Assembly: GCA_965248445.1 (NCBI GenBank)
Contig: CBDFJG010000004.1
Coordinates: 1,248,001-1,312,000, forward strand
Direction: 5' to 3'
Length of the DNA stretch: 64,000 nucleotides
DNA from: Planctomycetota bacterium
GTDB lineage: Bacteria; Planctomycetota; JAJSAM01; JAJVHW01
Shown here in pieces: positions 51,304-64,000 of this stretch (position 1 is the first letter of the stretch; each line of letters opens with the position of its first letter). A program made the position numbers and the translations under genes. The notes beneath the pieces are model-generated. The model was not told where the DNA came from. It worked only from the letters and a program-made list of their open reading frames with translations, and searched no databases.

Positions 51304-52348
51304 CATGCATATCCGGTTAATGACCGCGCCCACTACATCTTGTGCTAGAAGGGCAGCGGGCTTGCAGGCTCGTCGGCGTAGACCTGTTCGTACGTGCGCG
51401 GCGGCGTCTTCGCCGCGATGCCGAGGACCGTCTGGAACGCTGCCTGCGGCGTGCGTCTCCTGTTGAACCGGAACGTGAACTCGTCGAGATACCGCTGCAG
51501 GTGCTTCTTCGAGACCCGGCCGTGGTGCGTGCCTACGAGCCAGGTCTCTTGAGGTTGGAGAAGACCAGGTGCAGGTGCCTCAGGACGTCCGCCTGCGCCG
51601 CGCCCATCATCGTGGACTCGATCCCGTGCTCGTAGCCGAGTTTCTCGACTGCGTCGTAGGTCTCGTGGCCGTCGGTCACGACGAGCGCCCCACGCTCGAT
51701 GCTGTCCTTGACGAACGCCAGCAGGTGCGGCTTCGATGAGGCCGGCACGTGGCGCAGCCGGATGCGTCCGGGCTGTGTACCTCTCTTCGTCGGACGCACC
51801 TCGACCGCGCCGACCACGACGGCCTTGTCTGCCGCGGTGCGCTCCTCTCGGCCTCGAAACGGCGCTCCGATCAGCGCCTCGTCGACCTCGACGACGCCGA
51901 ACAACTGCGCGCGCTCCGGCGCGACCATCGCAGATCGCAGTTTCTGGAGCATCTGGTACGCGGTCTCGTAGCGGGTCAGACCGAGCTGTCGCTGGAGTGC
52001 GAGCGCAGAGACGCCCCGCTTGTCCGTCGTCATCAAGTACGCGGCCCACATCCAGGACTTCAGCGGCAGCCGGCTGCGATGCAGCACTGTGCCCGCGGTG
52101 ACCGACGTGATCAGGTCGCAGCCCACGCACCGCATCGCTCTTCGATCTGGACGGGGCCAGTACTTCTTGCCGCCGCACCGGCGGCAGCGGAACCCGTCGG
52201 GCCAACGACACTGCACGAGGTACTCGAGGCACTGCTCTTCCGTCGCGAACTGCTCCGTGAACTCCACGATGTTGCGAGGGTAGCCCGGCTTCGGCATGCG
52301 TCCGAGACACTACCCCTTGGGGTCACGGTCGTCAACCGGATATGCATG
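51304..52348 (-). mobile_element. IS1595-family insertion sequence (1045 bp)
   Basis: IRs CATGCATATCCGGTT(A/G)A(T/C)GACCG; 8-bp target duplication CGAGATAG at 51296-51303 and 52349-52356. Confidence 0.96.
51345..52297 (-). pseudogene. IS1595 transposase, frameshifted near 51546
   Basis: Zn ribbon CRRC..CVGC, VEVDE, VTDG; KHLQRYLDEFTFRFNRR lies in another frame after CTC AAG AG ACC TGG. Confidence 0.88.
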
Positions 52349-56616: not shown

Positions 56617-57843
56617 TCAGGAACCCGGTCCGGAAGAGCTGCCCGAAGAGCCACCAGAGGAGCCGCCACCTCCCCCGCCTCCGCCACCCCGGCGCCCTCG
56701 GCGTCGTCGGCGCGGCCGGGACGACTTCTCTGCTCCGGGCTTTCCGCTGGGCTTCCCGCCGGGCGCGCCGCCGGAGGGCTTCGCGCCCCCGGACTGTGTG
56801 CCCCCGGACTGGCCACCACCGGCACCGGACGGGCCGGGACCGCCAGGCCGCGAACCGCACCCCCTGCGGCGGCGGCGGCCGGGACCCGACCCCTCTCTCT
56901 TCGACCCGTCGTTCCGGGGCCCGTCCTTCGTCGCCTTACCCGGCCGCGCGGACCGGTCGCCTCCGGACGTGCGTTTCGCGCCCGAGCGACCGCCCTGCCG
57001 ACTCCGGCCGCCGCGGGAACGGCGACCGCGCCCACTGCCGGACCGTCCACCGTCGGACCGACCACCGCCGGACCGGCCACCGTCGCCCTTGCGGCGGGTC
57101 GGCCGCTCCGACGCCTCGGGGAGGTGCGCCTCGGGCGTTGCGTCGAGGAGTTCCTCGACCGTCCTCGGGCGCTCGTCCGCGGCTGGTTCCTCGCCGCGCT
57201 CCGCGGCCTCGCGGGCCGCACGCCGTGCCATCTTGCGGCGCCGGGCGCGCTCCTCGGAGCGCCGCTGACCCGGGTAGAGCTCGGGGCCACGGTCTTCGGG
57301 CACGTCCGGCGCCTCGTCTGCGGCGTCTTCCTCTGCAGTCTCGTCGGCAACGGTGCCCGCGGCGTCGCTCGGAGCGTCCGCCTCAGTGGCCGCCTCAATG
57401 GTCGCCGGGGGCGCGCCCTCGGCTGCCGGTTCGTCGCCGGGAGGCGGGCGGATCAGGAGGTCGCGCGGGTCCTGGGGACCGCGCTCGGGATCCTCGACGG
57501 CCTCGACCGTCAGAAGCGCCGGCAGGTAGCCGCGCGGCTCTCCGAGGGCGCGGACGCGGCGCGTGTAGTTCCAGCCGAGGAAGTCGCGCAGCAACTCGTC
57601 GTGGGCGAGCGTGATAGCACGGTCCGTTACGGGCTCAGGTGCCGAGGGGACCGGATCGAAGTACGTGCACGACAATCCGAACACGAGCGGACAGTCCACC
57701 ATGTGCACGACGCCGAGGTCGTTGCGGCACAGAGTCGTCGCCTCCGGAGCCGCGCCCTCCGCTTCGGCAACGCGGTGCAGGTTGTTCGCGCACAGGCTCG
57801 TCGCGGGCACGGAGGTGGCGGTTGGGGTCTCGAAGTCGGCCAT
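56617..57843 (-). CDS. Hypothetical protein: Cys/His N-domain, acidic linker, Gly/Arg/Ser-rich tail
   Basis: Folded-looking N-terminus (CANNLH, LCRND, DCP, SCTYF), then low-complexity GGRS repeats. Confidence 0.65.
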   Translation of the reverse strand: MADFETPTATSVPATSLCANNLHRVAEAEGAAPEATTLCRNDLGVVHMVDCPLVFGLSCTYFDPVPSAPEPVTDRAITLAHDELLRDFLGWNYTRRVRALGEPRGYLPALLTVEAVEDPERGPQDPRDLLIRPPPGDEPAAEGAPPATIEAATEADAPSDAAGTVADETAEEDAADEAPDVPEDRGPELYPGQRRSEERARRRKMARRAAREAAERGEEPAADERPRTVEELLDATPEAHLPEASERPTRRKGDGGRSGGGRSDGGRSGSGRGRRSRGGRSRQGGRSGAKRTSGGDRSARPGKATKDGPRNDGSKREGSGPGRRRRRGCGSRPGGPGPSGAGGGQSGGTQSGGAKPSGGAPGGKPSGKPGAEKSSRPRRRRRGRRGGGGGGGGGSSGGSSGSSSGPGS

Positions 57844-57937: not shown

Positions 57938-58573
57938 TCAGGCGACCCGGATGCGACCGGCTGCGGGGAACCGCCGTTCGGTACGCGTACCGGTGTCGCT
58001 TCGCTCGACCTCGAGGCGACCGCCCAGGGCGGTCACGAGGCCGTTTACGTGCGGGTCCGTGCTCTCCTCGCCCGTTCCGGTGTCCCGGACGACGAGGACG
58101 AGTCCACCGTGGCCGGCAGGTCGCACACTCACGACGACGCGGGCCTGTGCCGCTGCGGAGTGGCAAATGCCCTCCTCAACGACTCGCGTCAGCACGTTCA
58201 CAACCGCCGCGACATCGATGTCGTGGTTGCTGCGGGTCGTGCTTGTCGTGATCAGTAGTACGCCCTGGTCCTGCGCCAGCGGCTCAACGACCGTGCGCAG
58301 ACGACGGAAGATCTCCGCCGACGTGCAACGCGGCCGCATTTCAAGTGCGCCCCCCGCCGGCGTGGCCGTGCGGTCCGCCTGAGATCGAATGACGCCTACA
58401 TCGGCGACATGTTCGGATTCCTGGAGTGTTCGGGTCCCCTCTCTCTCGGGTTCCCACCGCCGATCGAGACGGCACACTTCCAGCACCGCAGCGAGTTCCG
58501 GCGCGAACGCTGGAGCCGCTGTGCGCTTGTTGCGCAGCAAGGGGGCGCGGTTCTTCATAGTTGAGCTCCTCAT
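57938..58573 (-). CDS. Degenerate stand-alone HATPase_c-like protein
   Basis: VLTRVVEEGICHS...LVLVVRDTGTG...ALGGRLEVERSDTGTRTERRFP; TGATG coupling to the subtilase. Confidence 0.55.
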   Translation of the reverse strand: MRSSTMKNRAPLLRNKRTAAPAFAPELAAVLEVCRLDRRWEPEREGTRTLQESEHVADVGVIRSQADRTATPAGGALEMRPRCTSAEIFRRLRTVVEPLAQDQGVLLITTSTTRSNHDIDVAAVVNVLTRVVEEGICHSAAAQARVVVSVRPAGHGGLVLVVRDTGTGEESTDPHVNGLVTALGGRLEVERSDTGTRTERRFPAAGRIRVA

Positions 58574-59556
58574 CAGTCGTTCACCGCGGCGTCGCAATCG
58601 ACACAGCCGCGGGTACTCGGTGAACTTCCCGTGATCGAAGACACGGTGTCCATCAACAGATCGCGGACGTCTTCCGGCGTGCGCGTCGAGTCGTCGTCGA
58701 GCGCGAGCGCGGCAGCGCCGCTCACGAGGGCGGCGGAGAACGAAGTTCCGTCCCACCAGCCGTAGTCGATTGCGGCGTCGTCGAGCGCTCCGGAGAGTCC
58801 TTCGCCCGGTGCGTAGATGTCCACCTCGGCGCCACCCGGGCTCCAAGACGCCACGACGTCGTTCGCATCGACCGCGCCGACCGTGATCGACGCCGCGCGC
58901 ACGTCTTCGTCATCGAGCAGATCGTCGGCCGCGTTGCCGGCGGAGGTCACGATCGTGACGCCTGCGGCGACGGCGTCGCTCACGGCGTCCAAGAGAACCT
59001 GCGTCGCATCGGGGATGACGGCGCTGATATTGATCACGTCGACGCCCTCGCTCACCGCGTGGTCGATCGCGGAAGCAAGATCGGCGCACGTGCCATTGCC
59101 CTCGTCGTCAAGACAGCGGATCGGGAGGATCTTGACGCCCGGCGCCGTCGCCCTGATCAGCGAAGCGATGAAGTTGCCGTGACCGGTGTTGCGGTCCGTG
59201 ACGCCGTCGCTGTCGTCGTCGGTGCCGTTCGGCGACTCGTCGACATCGCTGTCGTCGTCCACTGCGTCCCAGGCCCCGCTCTGCAGCGAGCCCGTCCAGA
59301 CCTCGTGGGTCAGGTCAAAGCCACTGTCGAGCACGGCGATGACGATGCCGTCGCCCGTGGCGACCGAGTGCGCATCGCCGGCGAGGATCGCGTCGAGAGC
59401 CGACTGCGAGTCGACCATTGACGCGGAGATCACCTCATCGCGCGCAGGCTTGTCGAACGGCTGCGCGATGACTTCCGCGCCGCTCCGCAGTCCGACCGAG
59501 AAGAGAACCGTTGTCGCCCCCAGCACCAGGGGCAAAAGTGTGTGTCGCGCTCCCAT
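58573..59556 (-). CDS. S8 subtilase with signal peptide
   Basis: IAVLDSG (D), GHGNFIAS (H), SAGN (oxyanion), GTSFSA (S). Confidence 0.92.
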   Translation of the reverse strand: MGARHTLLPLVLGATTVLFSVGLRSGAEVIAQPFDKPARDEVISASMVDSQSALDAILAGDAHSVATGDGIVIAVLDSGFDLTHEVWTGSLQSGAWDAVDDDSDVDESPNGTDDDSDGVTDRNTGHGNFIASLIRATAPGVKILPIRCLDDEGNGTCADLASAIDHAVSEGVDVINISAVIPDATQVLLDAVSDAVAAGVTIVTSAGNAADDLLDDEDVRAASITVGAVDANDVVASWSPGGAEVDIYAPGEGLSGALDDAAIDYGWWDGTSFSAALVSGAAALALDDDSTRTPEDVRDLLMDTVSSITGSSPSTRGCVDCDAAVND

Positions 59557-62495
59557 CAGGAGCTCCTTCCTGACTGTGGGCTCACGCTCCCCTGCGCACC
59601 ACCCGACTGAAACTCGTGCCCCTCACCTGTGACCCGGCCGGGATGACCGATCAGGAAGAAGGGCGCCCAGAAGTACGGATGCGCGTGCTTCGCGCGGACG
59701 GAACGCATGGCCGTGCGGAGAGCGGATCCCCACGAGCCTGACTCACGCGCCGCGCCGTAGAAGGCGCGCATGAAGGCCGAGGTGGCCTGGTCGGCAATGC
59801 GCCACTGCCCCGCGAGGAGGCGTGGCGCACCGGCGAACAGGAAACCTCGGAACAACCCCTGCACTTCGTCGCCTCTGGTGACCGCGGCGACACCGCTCTC
59901 GCATGCTGCGAGGGTGACGAGGTCGGAGCGAACGTCGAGGTCGAAGGCGTCGTAAACCGTCAGCGGTCCGTCGGCCAGCTCGATGCTCGAGAGCGCGGAC
60001 TCCTCGCTGTCGTACGTGCCGTGCGTTGCGACGTGCAGGACGTGACTCGTCCGGGCCGCTTCGCGCAGCGCGTCAGACGTCGCTGCTTCGCCGAGCACGA
60101 GACGGGTGTCGGCGCCAAGGGCGTCCGCAACGGCAGCCGCGTCTTCCTCGATCCCCGGGGCGTCGGCATCCGGCAGCGCGAGCACCGTCGGGCTGCCCGT
60201 CGCGCGCCCGTGCCGATGCTGACCGCAGTACGTGAACACCGAAGCACTCGGTGCATACCAGATCTCGAGCTCGTCGCTCAGCCAGCCGCCGTCGTGCGGG
60301 AGCGCGTGGAACGGGAACCCGTGCAGGCACCCGTGCGGCGAGATCACCACCCGGCGTGTCGTGAGGAGATCCGCGATCGGGTCGATCAGGACAGCGTGCA
60401 CTGCCGCCAGGTTCGCCCGCGTTGCCCGAAGCTGCGCGCCCTCGGCCATCGTGGGTGCCGCGTCTGAGGTCTGATGGCTGACGAGCTGACGCTGGAAACG
60501 GCGGAGCAGGCGCTCCAGGTCCTCACGCGGCACGTCGATGGCGACCGCATCGAAGCCGTCGCGCGTGACGACGAACACGTACACGCTCGTGGCTGAGACG
60601 AAGTACTGCAGCAGCGTGGTGTCGGCATCCAGGCTGCGCTGCACGTCTGCCGGCGGCACGGCTCCGACCGCCGAGATCGATGCGAGCTCCGCGTCCTCTT
60701 CCCAAGCGGCCTGCAACGCGGTGTTCACGGACTGCCGGAGCGCCCGGAGTTCGGCACGCAGCGCGCGAGCGCGCTTCTTTCCGGCCGGGGACCGGTCGGC
60801 GACAACGCTCTCGAGCCGCGCGACGAGCGCGTCAGCGCGACGGCGTTGGCGATCGACGCGGCGGCCGCGGAGGGCACCCGAGCGGGTTCGCCGCGCGCCC
60901 CGGTGCGATGCGTCGTGGAGCATGTCAAGGAGCGCGCGCGACTTCGCCCGCTCCGTCAAGGAGAACGCCTCGACGATCCGTTCCGCATCGACGAGCGAGG
61001 ACACGGTCGCGGCATAGAGCGACGCCTTGCTCGCGAGGAAGGCGATCATGAACTCGCCGGGCGGGAGCGAGCCGCGGAACTCCTCGAGGTTGCGCACGGC
61101 GCGCAACCGGATCTCGGTCGCCTCGTCTTCGCGGCCGAGTGCGGCCAACGCAGAGGCGTGGACCTCGCCGAGCTCGACCTGCAGCCATGGCGACGGCACG
61201 CGCCGCATCCGCCGGCGTGCGCCGTCGATCCACGTCATGGCGCGCGCCGGCCGGTGCAGCGCCACGTCGATCGTGGCCAGCAGAACCTCGGCGCCGATCG
61301 TGCGCTCGACGAGCCCGCGACGCAAGAACGCCTCGTGGGCACCCGCTGCGTGCTCGGCCGCTTCGATCGTGTCGCCCACGATGAGCAGCGCGCGCGCCGT
61401 GAGCATGTCCACGTCCGCGAGCCGCGCGCCCATGCCCAGTGCCGCGTAGATCGCCCGTGCCTCGTCCAGCAACTCGACGGCGCGGCGGTCGACCAGCGCG
61501 GCGGTCGCGCCGATCTGGAGCGCCTGCCCCCACTCCTTGCGCTGCCCGAGGCGTGCGAACTCCGCCGACGTTTCGGCCGCGAGCCGCCGGGCACGATCGA
61601 CGAGCCCCACACTCAGCAGCACCTCGGCGCGCTCGAGCCTGCACTGGGCCACGCTGCGCGCACTCCCCAGCTCCGCGAGGTCTCTCTCGGCCTCGCGATA
61701 ACGGTGGAGGGCGGCCTTTACGCGCCCCTGAACGAACTGCGGGTGCGCGCCATTCGCGCGCAGCTGAGCAGCGGAGATCGGAGAGCCCGGCTCTCTGTAC
61801 GCATTCTCGGCCCAGGTCAGGTGACGCTCGGAGGCCTGGTAGCGCTGCACCGCCTCCAGCGAGACCGCTGTGTTCGATGCGAGCGCCGCCCGCAGGTTGC
61901 GAGAGACGTCCTCCAGCCGACGTGCCATGCGGAACCACAGCAGCGCCTCGCGGTACCGCTCCGCCCGCTGCGAGCGCACACCCAGCGCAAGACGCGTCGA
62001 GACGCGGTCGTGCGGGCTGCCGGCTCGCTCGAAGTACGCGTAAGCCGAGAGAGCGGCCCCCTCGGCCTCATCGACCCGTCCGAGCTGGTCGAGCGGGAAC
62101 ACCAATCGGAGTTCGGCGCGGTGCTCGAAGTCCGGGGACTGCGCGCGGCCCAAGCGGGACACCGCGCGGCGCAACAGGCCTACCGCGCGCCGGTTCCTGC
62201 CGAAGTCGATGTACGCCTGCCCCGCAACCGCAAGCGCGCGTCCCCGAGCCAGGTCGCAACCGAATTCGCGGCCGAGCGAGCCCAGGACACGACAGACGCG
62301 CAATGATCCGGATCCCTCGTCGAGAAGAGCGGCGCCCGCTGCGCGATCCAGCGCTTCGAGAATCAGTCCGATCTCCTCGTCGCTCTCCATGAGGACACGC
62401 GCGGCGGCGCTCGTGCTCGTGCTGGCCTGCACGACACGCGCGACTTCCGCGACGAGCTCTACGCTCGCGGTCCCAGCAGGAGCGATGCAGCTCAC
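59556..62495 (-). CDS. TPR-CHAT (caspase/HetF-like) protease
   Basis: TPR-like N-terminus; AFSLTERAKSRALLDML; ISPHGCLHGFPFHAL; HVATHG (His); VTLAACESG (Cys); HPYFWAPF. Confidence 0.93.
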   Translation of the reverse strand: MSCIAPAGTASVELVAEVARVVQASTSTSAAARVLMESDEEIGLILEALDRAAGAALLDEGSGSLRVCRVLGSLGREFGCDLARGRALAVAGQAYIDFGRNRRAVGLLRRAVSRLGRAQSPDFEHRAELRLVFPLDQLGRVDEAEGAALSAYAYFERAGSPHDRVSTRLALGVRSQRAERYREALLWFRMARRLEDVSRNLRAALASNTAVSLEAVQRYQASERHLTWAENAYREPGSPISAAQLRANGAHPQFVQGRVKAALHRYREAERDLAELGSARSVAQCRLERAEVLLSVGLVDRARRLAAETSAEFARLGQRKEWGQALQIGATAALVDRRAVELLDEARAIYAALGMGARLADVDMLTARALLIVGDTIEAAEHAAGAHEAFLRRGLVERTIGAEVLLATIDVALHRPARAMTWIDGARRRMRRVPSPWLQVELGEVHASALAALGREDEATEIRLRAVRNLEEFRGSLPPGEFMIAFLASKASLYAATVSSLVDAERIVEAFSLTERAKSRALLDMLHDASHRGARRTRSGALRGRRVDRQRRRADALVARLESVVADRSPAGKKRARALRAELRALRQSVNTALQAAWEEDAELASISAVGAVPPADVQRSLDADTTLLQYFVSATSVYVFVVTRDGFDAVAIDVPREDLERLLRRFQRQLVSHQTSDAAPTMAEGAQLRATRANLAAVHAVLIDPIADLLTTRRVVISPHGCLHGFPFHALPHDGGWLSDELEIWYAPSASVFTYCGQHRHGRATGSPTVLALPDADAPGIEEDAAAVADALGADTRLVLGEAATSDALREAARTSHVLHVATHGTYDSEESALSSIELADGPLTVYDAFDLDVRSDLVTLAACESGVAAVTRGDEVQGLFRGFLFAGAPRLLAGQWRIADQATSAFMRAFYGAARESGSWGSALRTAMRSVRAKHAHPYFWAPFFLIGHPGRVTGEGHEFQSGGAQGSVSPQSGRSS

Positions 62496-63121
62496 CCGTC
62501 CCTCTTCTCCGACCACAGCTCGACACGCGGCGCGATCGCGTCGTCACCGAGCCGCAGACCGAAGTGATCCGCGCGGTGCTTGCCGAACTCGAACTCGCCG
62601 AACCCGTTGGTGCGCGTCGAGTCCGACGGCAGGTGGTTGACGAGCAAGGTGATCGGGAGGCCCTCGGCGGGCTCACCGTCCGAACGCAGGATCTGCCCGG
62701 AGACGGCGAACTCGTTGCTGAGCTGCCCGGGGTGCAACAGCACATCCAGATGGCTGTCGCCGATCGTGCAGTTCAGGTGGTACTCGTCGGTGCGCGCCAC
62801 GCGGTACCCGGCCATGGCCCGAACCGGCTCGGCGACGAACCACTCACCGTCGTCCGCGGGACTGTAGCCGGCGTCCCCTCCAGCGAGGAGGCGCGCCGTG
62901 ATCGAGCGGACCGACGACACGACGCCGGCAGGCACCGGCGGATACGCGGTCAGGCTGCGATGCGCGAACTGGATCGAGTGGACGTCCTCGCGGCACGGCT
63001 CGCAGTCGATCAGGTGGACGGCGACCTCGCGGGTCAGGTCGTCCACCGGTCCTTCGAGCGCGTAGCGGTACTGCGCGGCGTCATCTGGATGGGTGTTGTG
63101 AGGAAGAGACGGATCAGACAT
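62492..63121 (-). CDS. Soluble zinc anti-sigma factor with C-terminal beta-sandwich (carboxypeptidase-regulatory-like) domain
   Basis: H-x24-HLIDCEPC ZAS motif; no TM helix; VSGQIL...TNGFGEFEF; GGAGGTG RBS. Confidence 0.78.
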   Translation of the reverse strand: MSDPSLPHNTHPDDAAQYRYALEGPVDDLTREVAVHLIDCEPCREDVHSIQFAHRSLTAYPPVPAGVVSSVRSITARLLAGGDAGYSPADDGEWFVAEPVRAMAGYRVARTDEYHLNCTIGDSHLDVLLHPGQLSNEFAVSGQILRSDGEPAEGLPITLLVNHLPSDSTRTNGFGEFEFGKHRADHFGLRLGDDAIAPRVELWSEKRDG

Positions 63122-63250
63122 GCAGGCACCTCCCGGTCAGGGGTCGTGCCCGGGTAGTGCGGCGCGGGCGGCGATCCGTACACCCGATCTTCGGATTTCT
63201 CCGAATCCGGGGCCTCGCGAGCCCACGGGGCGTCGCAGCGAGGCTGCGTC

Positions 63251-63811
63251 TCAGGCGGCCTGAGGTGGCTCGAGCCCGCGGTCAGAGAGTGCCTTGCGAA
63301 GGCGTTTGAGTGCGCGGCCGAGGAGCGAACCGATGCTGTTCTCGCTGACGCCGATCTTCGCGGCGAGCGCGGCGTGGGAAAGCGGCGGGTATGTGAAGTG
63401 CTTGCCCTCGATCAGCGTGCGATCCCGATCGGAGAGCCCCTGCACCGCCTCGCGAACGAGCCGGCCGGTCTCCATCGTCTCGACGATCTCGTCAGGAGCG
63501 TTCTCGCCTGGCTGCGGGAGCTGTTCCAGGAGCTCCGTGCTCGAAGCCACATCCCGACGGCGGCGGATCACGCCTCGAGCCGTCCAGCAGACGATGGACG
63601 CGAGCCAGGCGACCCGGCGCTCGCGGCCGGGCATCGCAGCCACGCGGCGGATGACGACGGTCCAGGCGTCGGAGATCGTCTCCTCCGCCTCTTCGTGCGA
63701 GAGCGAGTACCGCCGGCGCAGGATCGACCACATGAGCGGCAGGTAGGCGTTCATGAACACCTCCCAGTCCGCTTCCGCGCGGGGAGGATCGTCGGAGTCT
63801 GCCGTCCACAT
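63251..63811 (-). CDS. ECF sigma factor (start uncertain; frame open to the window end)
   Basis: WEVFMNAYLPLMWSI, EAEETISDAW, AWL, LSDRDRTLI, SHAALAAKIGVSENSIGSLLGRALKRLR. Confidence 0.9.
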   Translation of the reverse strand: MWTADSDDPPRAEADWEVFMNAYLPLMWSILRRRYSLSHEEAEETISDAWTVVIRRVAAMPGRERRVAWLASIVCWTARGVIRRRRDVASSTELLEQLPQPGENAPDEIVETMETGRLVREAVQGLSDRDRTLIEGKHFTYPPLSHAALAAKIGVSENSIGSLLGRALKRLRKALSDRGLEPPQAA

Positions 63812-64000
63812 CGAATCAGACCCGGACCCGCGGAGCGCGAGGCTGGAGGGTCCGGGCGGACCGGGGTCCGCATGCGTGGGTTTTGTCGGTCGGCGGTGCA
63901 TCCGTACTAAGCGCGAGCCGGGCAGCGCGCCTCGCGACGCGGCGCCCGACTGTGTACTCATCTGCAACGGCAGCGTCCACGATCGGCTTAACTCGGAAGC

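Follow-up and report, generated by a model that had tools for sequence, protein, structure and literature searches.

Bacterial proteases with tetratricopeptide repeats (TPRs) and a CHAT domain are found in the gene neighbourhood of group ECF54 sigma factors, which are of the extracytoplasmic function (ECF) type. Here, we describe a locus of this kind in a 64,000-nucleotide stretch (the window) of contig CBDFJG010000004.1 from a Planctomycetota bacterium, whose genome is 5.4 Mb and 92% complete. According to the list of open reading frames (ORFs) and the sequence, five ORFs on the minus strand (57938-63811) encode an ECF sigma factor, the protein that follows it (the +1 protein), a TPR-CHAT protease, an S8 subtilase and a HATPase-like protein. 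The +1 protein is predicted to be a soluble anti-sigma factor, and we see roughly an even chance that the cluster is a protease-gated switch, in which CHAT cuts this inhibitor after Arg107 to free sigma. What appears to be new, judging from the sequence, is the predicted role of the +1 protein as a soluble anti-sigma factor, its conserved arginine loop with a candidate cut site and the nature of the fifth gene as a decayed kinase.

In the accessible part of the supplement to PMC7826278, ECF54 is listed as 100% Actinobacteria, with 'lack of putative AS factor', a GTATCAG/CTCC promoter and a genomic context in which the +1 position is always taken by a carboxypeptidase-regulatory-like protein, accompanied by a subtilase and a TPR-CHAT protein. 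The text of PMC8999054, also accessible in part, proposes control by proteases without an anti-sigma factor. By its gene content, the window cluster belongs to this ECF54 context, and the neighbourhood itself is already in print. Credit for describing the context is reportedly also due to Huang et al. in 2015. Our literature search, with subscription papers and Huang et al. 2015 beyond its reach, turned up neither experiments on such loci nor any claim of an anti-sigma role or a cut site for the +1 protein. The first-pass annotation, a reading of this DNA from its letters alone, had regarded the arrangement as uncharacterised; this stands as far as experiments in the open literature go, but not for the context and the protease control, which had been published.

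Other described systems resemble the locus in part, and what we say of them is limited to the accessible portions of each paper. In the Csx29-Csx30-CASP-sigma pathway of type III-E CRISPR systems, the cytoplasmic TPR-CHAT protease Csx29 cuts the soluble sigma inhibitor Csx30 in a loop, and the N-terminal piece of Csx30 remains able to bind sigma, with its degradation proposed (PMC10028731). Csx29 differs in being activated by Cas7-11/RNA, in the Met-containing loop that it cuts and in lacking an aspartate that is invariant in the window family. The window TPR-CHAT protein scores 38.9 bits against the Csx29 family NF041237, whose cut-off is 300, and is not a member. No RAMP or Cas1 match was found in the window's 92%-complete genome, which agrees with the CRISPR-independent switch that the first-pass annotation had envisaged. 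In Anabaena, the CHAT protease HetF cuts the inhibitor PatU3 once after an arginine (Tyr116-Arg117|Ser118, i.e. Y-R|S), and the pieces are then degraded by general proteolysis (PMC9457339). HetF, however, is anchored in the membrane and has its TPRs in the periplasm; the account does not present PatU3 as an anti-sigma factor, and no subtilase features in it. In its way of working, the window module resembles both Csx29-Csx30 and HetF-PatU3, and it is a member of neither.

DdvA-DdvS of Myxococcus xanthus likewise brings a zinc anti-sigma domain, a sigma factor of the ECF type and a TPR-CHAT into one switch (PMC11506125). DdvA is a single transmembrane protein with a periplasmic TPR-CHAT, depends on RseP and controls a CBASS-CRISPR island, whereas the window module consists of separate genes for soluble proteins, with no membrane helix and no defence island. 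The EACC2-caspase systems with an ECF sigma factor and DUF1822 also tie a caspase-like domain to an ECF sigma factor, with proteolytic activation proposed (PMC8195603); their constant domains are different, and the accessible text mentions neither an anti-sigma factor nor a subtilase.

The sigma factor, its predicted inhibitor and a candidate promoter

The sigma gene (63251-63811, minus strand; 186 residues from an ATG) matches the NCBIfam family sigma70-ECF TIGR02937 with 63.2 bits (cut-off 42.9) and Pfam Sigma70_r4 with an E-value of 6e-7. The operon had been drawn to 63967, which is an upstream TTG; the ORF itself is real, and alignment with orthologous sigmas, which are 176-188 residues long, favours the ATG at 63811. 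In the same alignment, region 4.2 departs from the family motif. A quick tree, with rows chosen by similarity, groups the window sigma with those of loci L022, L023, L024 and L029 (Shimodaira-Hasegawa-like approximate likelihood ratio test 93) and places this group together with all actinobacterial rows in one clade (98), apart from 29 other sigmas of the same genome.

Two sets of loci were used for comparison. The sigma-anchored set holds the best 80 of 512 confirmed loci from GTDB genomes scanned with the sigma alignment; it spans Actinomycetota, Planctomycetota, Chloroflexota, Acidobacteriota, Gemmatimonadota and Zixibacteria. The CHAT-anchored set was drawn from 41 related genomes and consists of their top 20 CHAT matches, the window itself excluded. 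Like ECF54 in the accessible parts of PMC7826278 and PMC8999054, the module combines an ECF sigma factor with a subtilase and a TPR-CHAT within three genes of it and with a carboxypeptidase-regulatory-like +1 protein (PF13620, E-value 0.008, below the curated cut-off, as in actinobacterial +1 proteins); relatives share the GTATCAG -35, and protease control has been proposed. It differs from the ECF54 of PMC7826278, again as far as accessible, in lying in Planctomycetota, with relatives in six phyla instead of Actinobacteria only, and in a +1 protein that carries a zinc anti-sigma domain as well as an Arg predicted to mark a cut site; its S8 is probably an exported protein, and the locus also includes a histidine kinase gene. 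On sequence comparison, the cluster is an ECF54-like module that departs from the published definition in three respects: phylum, anti-sigma factor and promoter.

The +1 gene (62492-63121, minus strand) encodes 209 residues: a zinc anti-sigma domain (residues ~10-79; 62885-63094), an Arg loop and a carboxypeptidase-regulatory-like beta-sandwich (residues ~114-206). In the model (predicted local distance difference test, pLDDT, 86), helices at 14-23, 28-39, 41-58 and 65-79 precede the beta-sandwich, forming the three-helix bundle plus fourth helix of the zinc-binding anti-sigma (ZAS) fold, with helices III-IV at residues 41-79. The ligands H11, H36, C40 and C43 (H11..H36-x3-C40-x2-C43) fit the ZAS pattern His/Cys-x(23-26)-His-x3-Cys-x2-Cys, and the best 19-residue hydropathy, 1.04, indicates no membrane helix. 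An anti-sigma factor with a ZAS motif and without a transmembrane helix was what the first-pass annotation had described, and both features were confirmed. The motif is found in 14 of 16 Planctomycetota rows and in 43 of 45 representatives.

Residues 10-75 superpose on RslA (3hug_B) with a middling Z of 5.1 (root-mean-square deviation 3.0, 62 of 62 residues aligned), and the N-terminal part of the +1 profile weakly matches the DdvA zinc-binding anti-sigma domain (E-value 0.21) and RsiW (0.86). A single-sequence search with the +1 protein returned only itself, and Foldseek with the model gave no match at an E-value of 0.001 or better. Matches of the sandwich to alpha-2-macroglobulin MG domains (Z 8.4) were read as a common fold, not as a function. 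As a predicted complex, sigma:+1 scored 0.73 against 0.00 for the best of three controls; because like complexes have already been solved, this score may reflect likeness and does not show binding. Of solved pairs, 116 of 157 attain the mark for such scores, compared with 2 of 215 mismatched ones; the runs share at least 70% of contacts, with a partner pLDDT of at least 80. The predicted sigma interface on the +1 protein comprises residues 13-21 and 46-86, and neither Arg107 nor the sandwich is listed as part of it. The RslA-like N-terminal domain and the modelled complex are in line with the anti-sigma fold and sigma binding that had been supposed, and we predict that the +1 protein is a soluble anti-sigma factor, contrary to the published description of ECF54.

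The published alternative holds that there is no anti-sigma factor and that proteases act on sigma directly, as proposed in the accessible parts of PMC8999054 and of the PMC7826278 supplement. It has a parallel in PCaspase, which cuts its own sigma directly in a type III-B system, and the actinobacterial +1 proteins indeed lack the zinc motif. These copies start at helix III, yet they keep helix III, the Pro turn and helix IV, which align with most of the predicted interface, and they may represent a minimal anti-sigma factor reduced to the two sigma-touching helices. The missing zinc ligands and helices would explain why the anti-sigma factor was overlooked. Given also the zinc motif, the fold and the predicted complex of the window protein, we consider direct control very improbable.

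In the window, L022, L023 and L024, the +1 start is preceded by a CGCA(T/C)TAC box at a distance of 27-32 bases, and 13 bases ahead of this box stands GTATCAG (L023), GCATCAA (L024), GCATTGA (L022) or GTACGGA (window). The candidate sigma-dependent promoter of the window (63154-63181, minus strand) would consist of the -35 GTACGGA, 13 bases and the -10 CGCACTAC; this exact pair occurs once in the genome. GTATCAG, the L023 variant, is the published ECF54 -35, and it is found at most 700 bases from the module in 47 of 79 related loci, at 0.139 versus 0.035 per kb outside, a fourfold excess over the flanks. Both the window and L022 carry a second copy of their respective variant 5' of the sigma gene; in the window, this is the 8-mer GTACGGAT (63900-63907, minus strand), a possible -35 that is weak and was found after the fact, the 8-mer occurring 153 times on both strands of the 5.4-Mb genome. 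A looser promoter pattern, tried for regulon prediction, gave five more matches that resemble coding sequence, and we predict no regulon from it. The layout, drawn from four related loci, fits autoregulation by sigma, and a candidate promoter ahead of the anti-sigma, CHAT and S8 genes agrees with the earlier suggestion that sigma induces the operon. L023, L024, L026 and L027 have in common a stretch GACTTGAG with its flanks, in either orientation, which lies upstream of the candidate promoter in the non-coding DNA that precedes the module's first gene.

The arginine loop and the proposed release of sigma

The loop between the two domains of the +1 protein contains the predicted CHAT cleavage site, A104-G-Y-R107|V108 (62798-62812, minus strand; Arg107 codon 62801-62803). 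Arg107 is the best-conserved column of the family, kept in 81 of 82 aligned +1 proteins and ahead of the sandwich glycines. The loop that holds it varies in length from 15 to 32 residues and shows indels on either side. A hydrophobic residue precedes the Arg, and the residue after it is Gly (43), Ser (17) or Ala (13) in 73 of 81. Among the rows, L042 duplicates L041, L125 duplicates L091, and L047 and L048 are near-identical; nine of 76 candidate +1 ORFs were left out for want of a family-profile match, two of which (L071 and L096) show the Arg motif by eye. The Arg stands in its column in 29 of 30 further loci, shifted by one in the other, and is present in all 45 short representatives, which are not fully independent, as several repeat seed rows and they were picked with a profile containing the Arg. 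L113, the one homologue without Arg, also lacks helix III, and no CHAT was found in its genome. Where an Arg-bearing +1 gene lies in a locus without CHAT, this CHAT was located elsewhere in 3/3 tested genomes.

The TPR-CHAT gene (59556-62495, minus strand) starts with GTG and encodes 979 residues, as does the call in the protein database entry. It matches CHAT PF12770 (E-value 3e-53) and has no signal or membrane segment. His825 (60021-60023), Cys865 (59901-59903) and Asp902 (59790-59792) are invariant in 76/76 CHAT homologues. In the full-length model (pLDDT 88), a TPR solenoid sits on the CHAT domain, and the fold matches those of Csx29, separase and DdvA; among solved structures, DdvA gives the best match to the CHAT domain (E-value 1e-13). 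Separase also cuts after Arg, which is bound at P1 by an aspartate 41 residues past the catalytic Cys, and securin blocks it by placing a hydrophobic residue where the P1 Arg would be (PMC10317155). The family alignment and the analogy with HetF make Arg107|Val108 the likely CHAT cut site. The first-pass annotation had CHAT cutting the anti-sigma factor; this proposal gains a candidate site with a precedent.

In the switch that we propose, the N-terminal anti-sigma domain is predicted to hold sigma via helices III-IV. A cue, probably sensed by the TPR solenoid, would activate CHAT, which would cut the exposed loop after Arg107 and remove the beta-sandwich. Housekeeping proteases would then degrade the 107-residue fragment still bound to sigma, as the cases of Csx30, PatU3 and RseA suggest. 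From the candidate promoter between the sigma and anti-sigma genes, free sigma would transcribe the genes for the anti-sigma factor, CHAT, the subtilase and the kinase, giving an exported protease as output and resupplying the inhibitor.

Several points weigh against this switch. The window site Gly-Tyr-Arg|Val is atypical, with Tyr before Arg in 1/81 and Val after Arg in 4/81. A cut at 107 leaves the predicted sigma-binding surface whole, and release therefore needs a second step. The invariant Asp is at Cys+37, whereas the P1-binding Asp of separase is at Cys+41, a position that is not Asp here; in the gap-free profile alignment, Asp902 pairs with a different separase Asp, one helical turn earlier, which is common to separase and DdvA and absent from both Csx29 sequences. 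We had expected Asp902 to be a separase-type Arg-binding Asp and, as it lies four residues early, no longer claim this. CHAT specificity varies, as seen from the Met loop in Csx30 and Leu in the Runella gasdermin. The Arg-less control L113 is a single case from a genome whose completeness is not established, and genome G193 has the Arg but no CHAT found, its locus starting at a contig end. Within helices III-IV, interface positions are not significantly better conserved than non-interface ones (0.38 versus 0.32, p 0.25). The window module contains no exact GTATCAG, its -35 being different, and its kinase is a decayed copy. Finally, sandwich-only paralogues without the anti-sigma domain keep the Arg motif in 6/6 cases, and the loop therefore has a job independent of sigma.

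These paralogues also favour an unlikely but serious alternative, in which the +1 protein is an anti-sigma factor whose Arg loop docks on or restrains CHAT as a bait, decoy or securin-like element, sigma is freed in another way, for example by zinc loss, and CHAT and S8 belong to what the regulon produces instead of setting it off. The candidate promoter indeed places CHAT and S8 downstream of sigma, a cut at 107 would spare the sigma-binding helices, and 4 of the 20 CHAT-anchored loci are sigma-less modules of the form CHAT-S8-ZAS/sandwich-sandwich-kinase. Securin, however, puts a hydrophobic residue in the place of the P1 Arg, whereas the +1 loop keeps both the Arg and a small next residue. 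Moreover, actinobacterial copies keep the Arg without zinc ligands, so that zinc loss is not a general trigger.

It is improbable, in our judgement, that the subtilase cuts the loop instead, or that the cell detects a foreign trypsin-like protease through its cutting of the loop, with CHAT acting elsewhere. The S8 gene (58573-59556, minus strand) encodes an acidic subtilase of 327 residues (PF00082, E-value 3e-37) with the triad D77/H126/S272, a hydrophobic N-terminus and a short pro-region; this triad and the His-Cys dyad of CHAT are as intact as first annotated. The N-terminus likely is a signal peptide for export. From hydropathy and inspection, S8 N-termini are signal-like in most Planctomycetota-type loci and not in actinobacterial ones, so the exported protease suggested as the output fits only part of the family. 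An S8 without a hydrophobic N-terminus could be cytoplasmic, and its acidity (18% Asp+Glu) and the unmatched separase specificity Asp in CHAT would also suit cutting by S8. However, with S8 probably exported in part of the family, the cutting of a cytoplasmic inhibitor cannot be its task throughout. Loci of Planctomycetota, Chloroflexota and Zixibacteria that encode an S8 with a signal-like N-terminus retain the Arg, which points to CHAT as the cutter. CHAT is also the steadier neighbour of sigma (63 versus 52 of 80), and it has the HetF precedent.

Returning to cleavage by CHAT, a wider version of this proposal, to which we give slightly less than an even chance, is that ECF54-type loci form a widespread, CRISPR-free, entirely cytoplasmic caspase-like switch. 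The +1 protein would be a hidden anti-sigma factor (with a full zinc domain or, in Actinobacteria, a two-helix form) carrying, on a beta-sandwich, a single Arg cut loop for its own TPR-CHAT, and the sandwich-only paralogues would be decoys that set a threshold. For a sigma group listed without an anti-sigma factor or known regulation, a candidate inhibitor, residue and promoter are now named and can be tested, and related loci occur in culturable, non-pathogenic hosts (for example Amycolatopsis, Actinoplanes, Catellatospora and Jiangella). Few natural substrates are known for the many stand-alone bacterial TPR-CHAT proteases, to which a candidate substrate and residue can now be added. If the proposal is true, and once the trigger has been found, a soluble three-protein switch from protease to transcription could be a compact part for synthetic circuits.

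Gene neighbourhood and the decayed kinase

The co-directional arrangement of the five genes and the three overlaps reported at first (62492-62495, 59556 and 58573) were verified in the sequence: GTGA joins the +1 and TPR-CHAT genes, and a TGATG overlap joins each of the TPR-CHAT/S8 and S8/HATPase-like pairs. The whole stretch was found unbroken and with zero differences in contigs of four runs of one sample, which is probably the source sample and thus not independent. Among the sigma-anchored loci, the +1 family is present in 70/80, CHAT and S8 in the numbers given above and all four genes in 49/80; gene order varies, and several loci are cut by contig ends. All four genes are present in 14 of the 20 CHAT-anchored loci; besides the four without sigma, the other two have CHAT alone, with or without S8, one of them on a 2.6-kb contig. 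These counts bear out the expectation that the genes are co-conserved. In 251 sampled Actinomycetota genomes, the +1 family occurs in 31, the CHAT type in 39 and both in 30 (Fisher p 1e-29, which is overstated because kin genomes are not independent), and the +1 family is present in 8/8 genomes of the window's family.

The locus has the same flanks as L022, with a SelT-like gene and an amidohydrolase upstream and, on the downstream side, a hypothetical gene and carB; the upstream pair also occurs in L023 and L024. By these shared flanking genes, the module is an inherited chromosomal locus, not an island. PADLOC gave a generic subtilase match only. Clustering of 1191 flanking ORFs, with inspection of representatives, revealed no recurring defence effector; the recurring neighbours were kinases, lineage-specific housekeeping genes and STAND-LuxR genes. 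No relative of the sigma was found on viral contigs. With a stable chromosomal position, no RAMP or Cas1 and no recurring defence neighbours, the role in conflict that had been offered as one possibility is unsupported. In L078, L079, L083, L086, L100, L117 and L118, actinobacterial sigmas of the clade adjoin a large AAA-ATPase/LuxR (STAND-like) gene, and some of these loci have lost the +1 and CHAT genes. In a Chloroflexota locus (L044:5631-7079), a sigma of the clade is followed by a conventional zinc anti-sigma factor that has both a membrane helix and a long extracytoplasmic part; no CHAT lies in the vicinity.

The fifth gene (57938-58573, minus strand) matches HATPase_c at an E-value of 0.012, below the cut-off, and had been taken for a pseudo-HATPase. 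We dropped the idea of a conserved pseudo-enzyme, as the orthologues are intact kinases: the gene after the module in L022-L027 is an intact sensorless histidine kinase (HisKA/HATPase_c found in L022). Aligned with four intact homologues, the window copy has lost the phospho-acceptor His, the N-box Asn, the ATP lid and the G2 box via in-frame deletions and substitution, whereas the phospho-acceptor His, N, F and G2 boxes, each missing or changed in the window, are present in L022-L025 and L028. Its G+C content at third codon positions (GC3) is 0.75, compared with 0.84-0.87 in the four core genes. Since a kinase is adjacent in only 7/80 sigma-anchored loci, it is an accessory of the module, and by alignment the window copy is dead, a sensorless histidine kinase decayed in this genome.

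A second, sigma-less module lies at L028:5148-10940 (G000:C2 about 229100-234900), with kinase, S8 and two sandwich proteins intact. There, the upstream region and the TPR half of the CHAT gene have given way to an IS66 element, which has terminal inverted repeats; by gene content, the two loci of the genome have lost complementary parts. The family might work as proposed while the window copy is decaying and no longer switches. Its kinase is deleted in two places with lowered GC3, the sandwich-only paralogue of L023 and L024 is missing from its locus, its sigma region 4.2 and -35 have diverged, and the second module is broken by IS66. We nevertheless regard decay of the whole module as quite improbable: the four core frames are open, coupled and of GC3 0.84-0.87, with all catalytic residues present, and the intact kinase and both sandwich proteins of the second locus could act in trans.

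Three further features were noted around the module. Between it and carB, a 408-residue protein (56617-57843, minus strand) has no Pfam or NCBIfam match; over its first 120 residues it shares 55% identity with the syntenic L022 gene, and the remainder is of low complexity. Transposase-like frames at 51345-52310 (minus strand) are apparently frameshifted and presumably belong to an IS1595-like family. Just past the right end of the window (L001:12052-12297, minus strand), a SelT/SelW/SelH-family gene has an in-frame TGA in a CxxU motif and likely encodes a selenoprotein; it is also found upstream of the orthologous loci.

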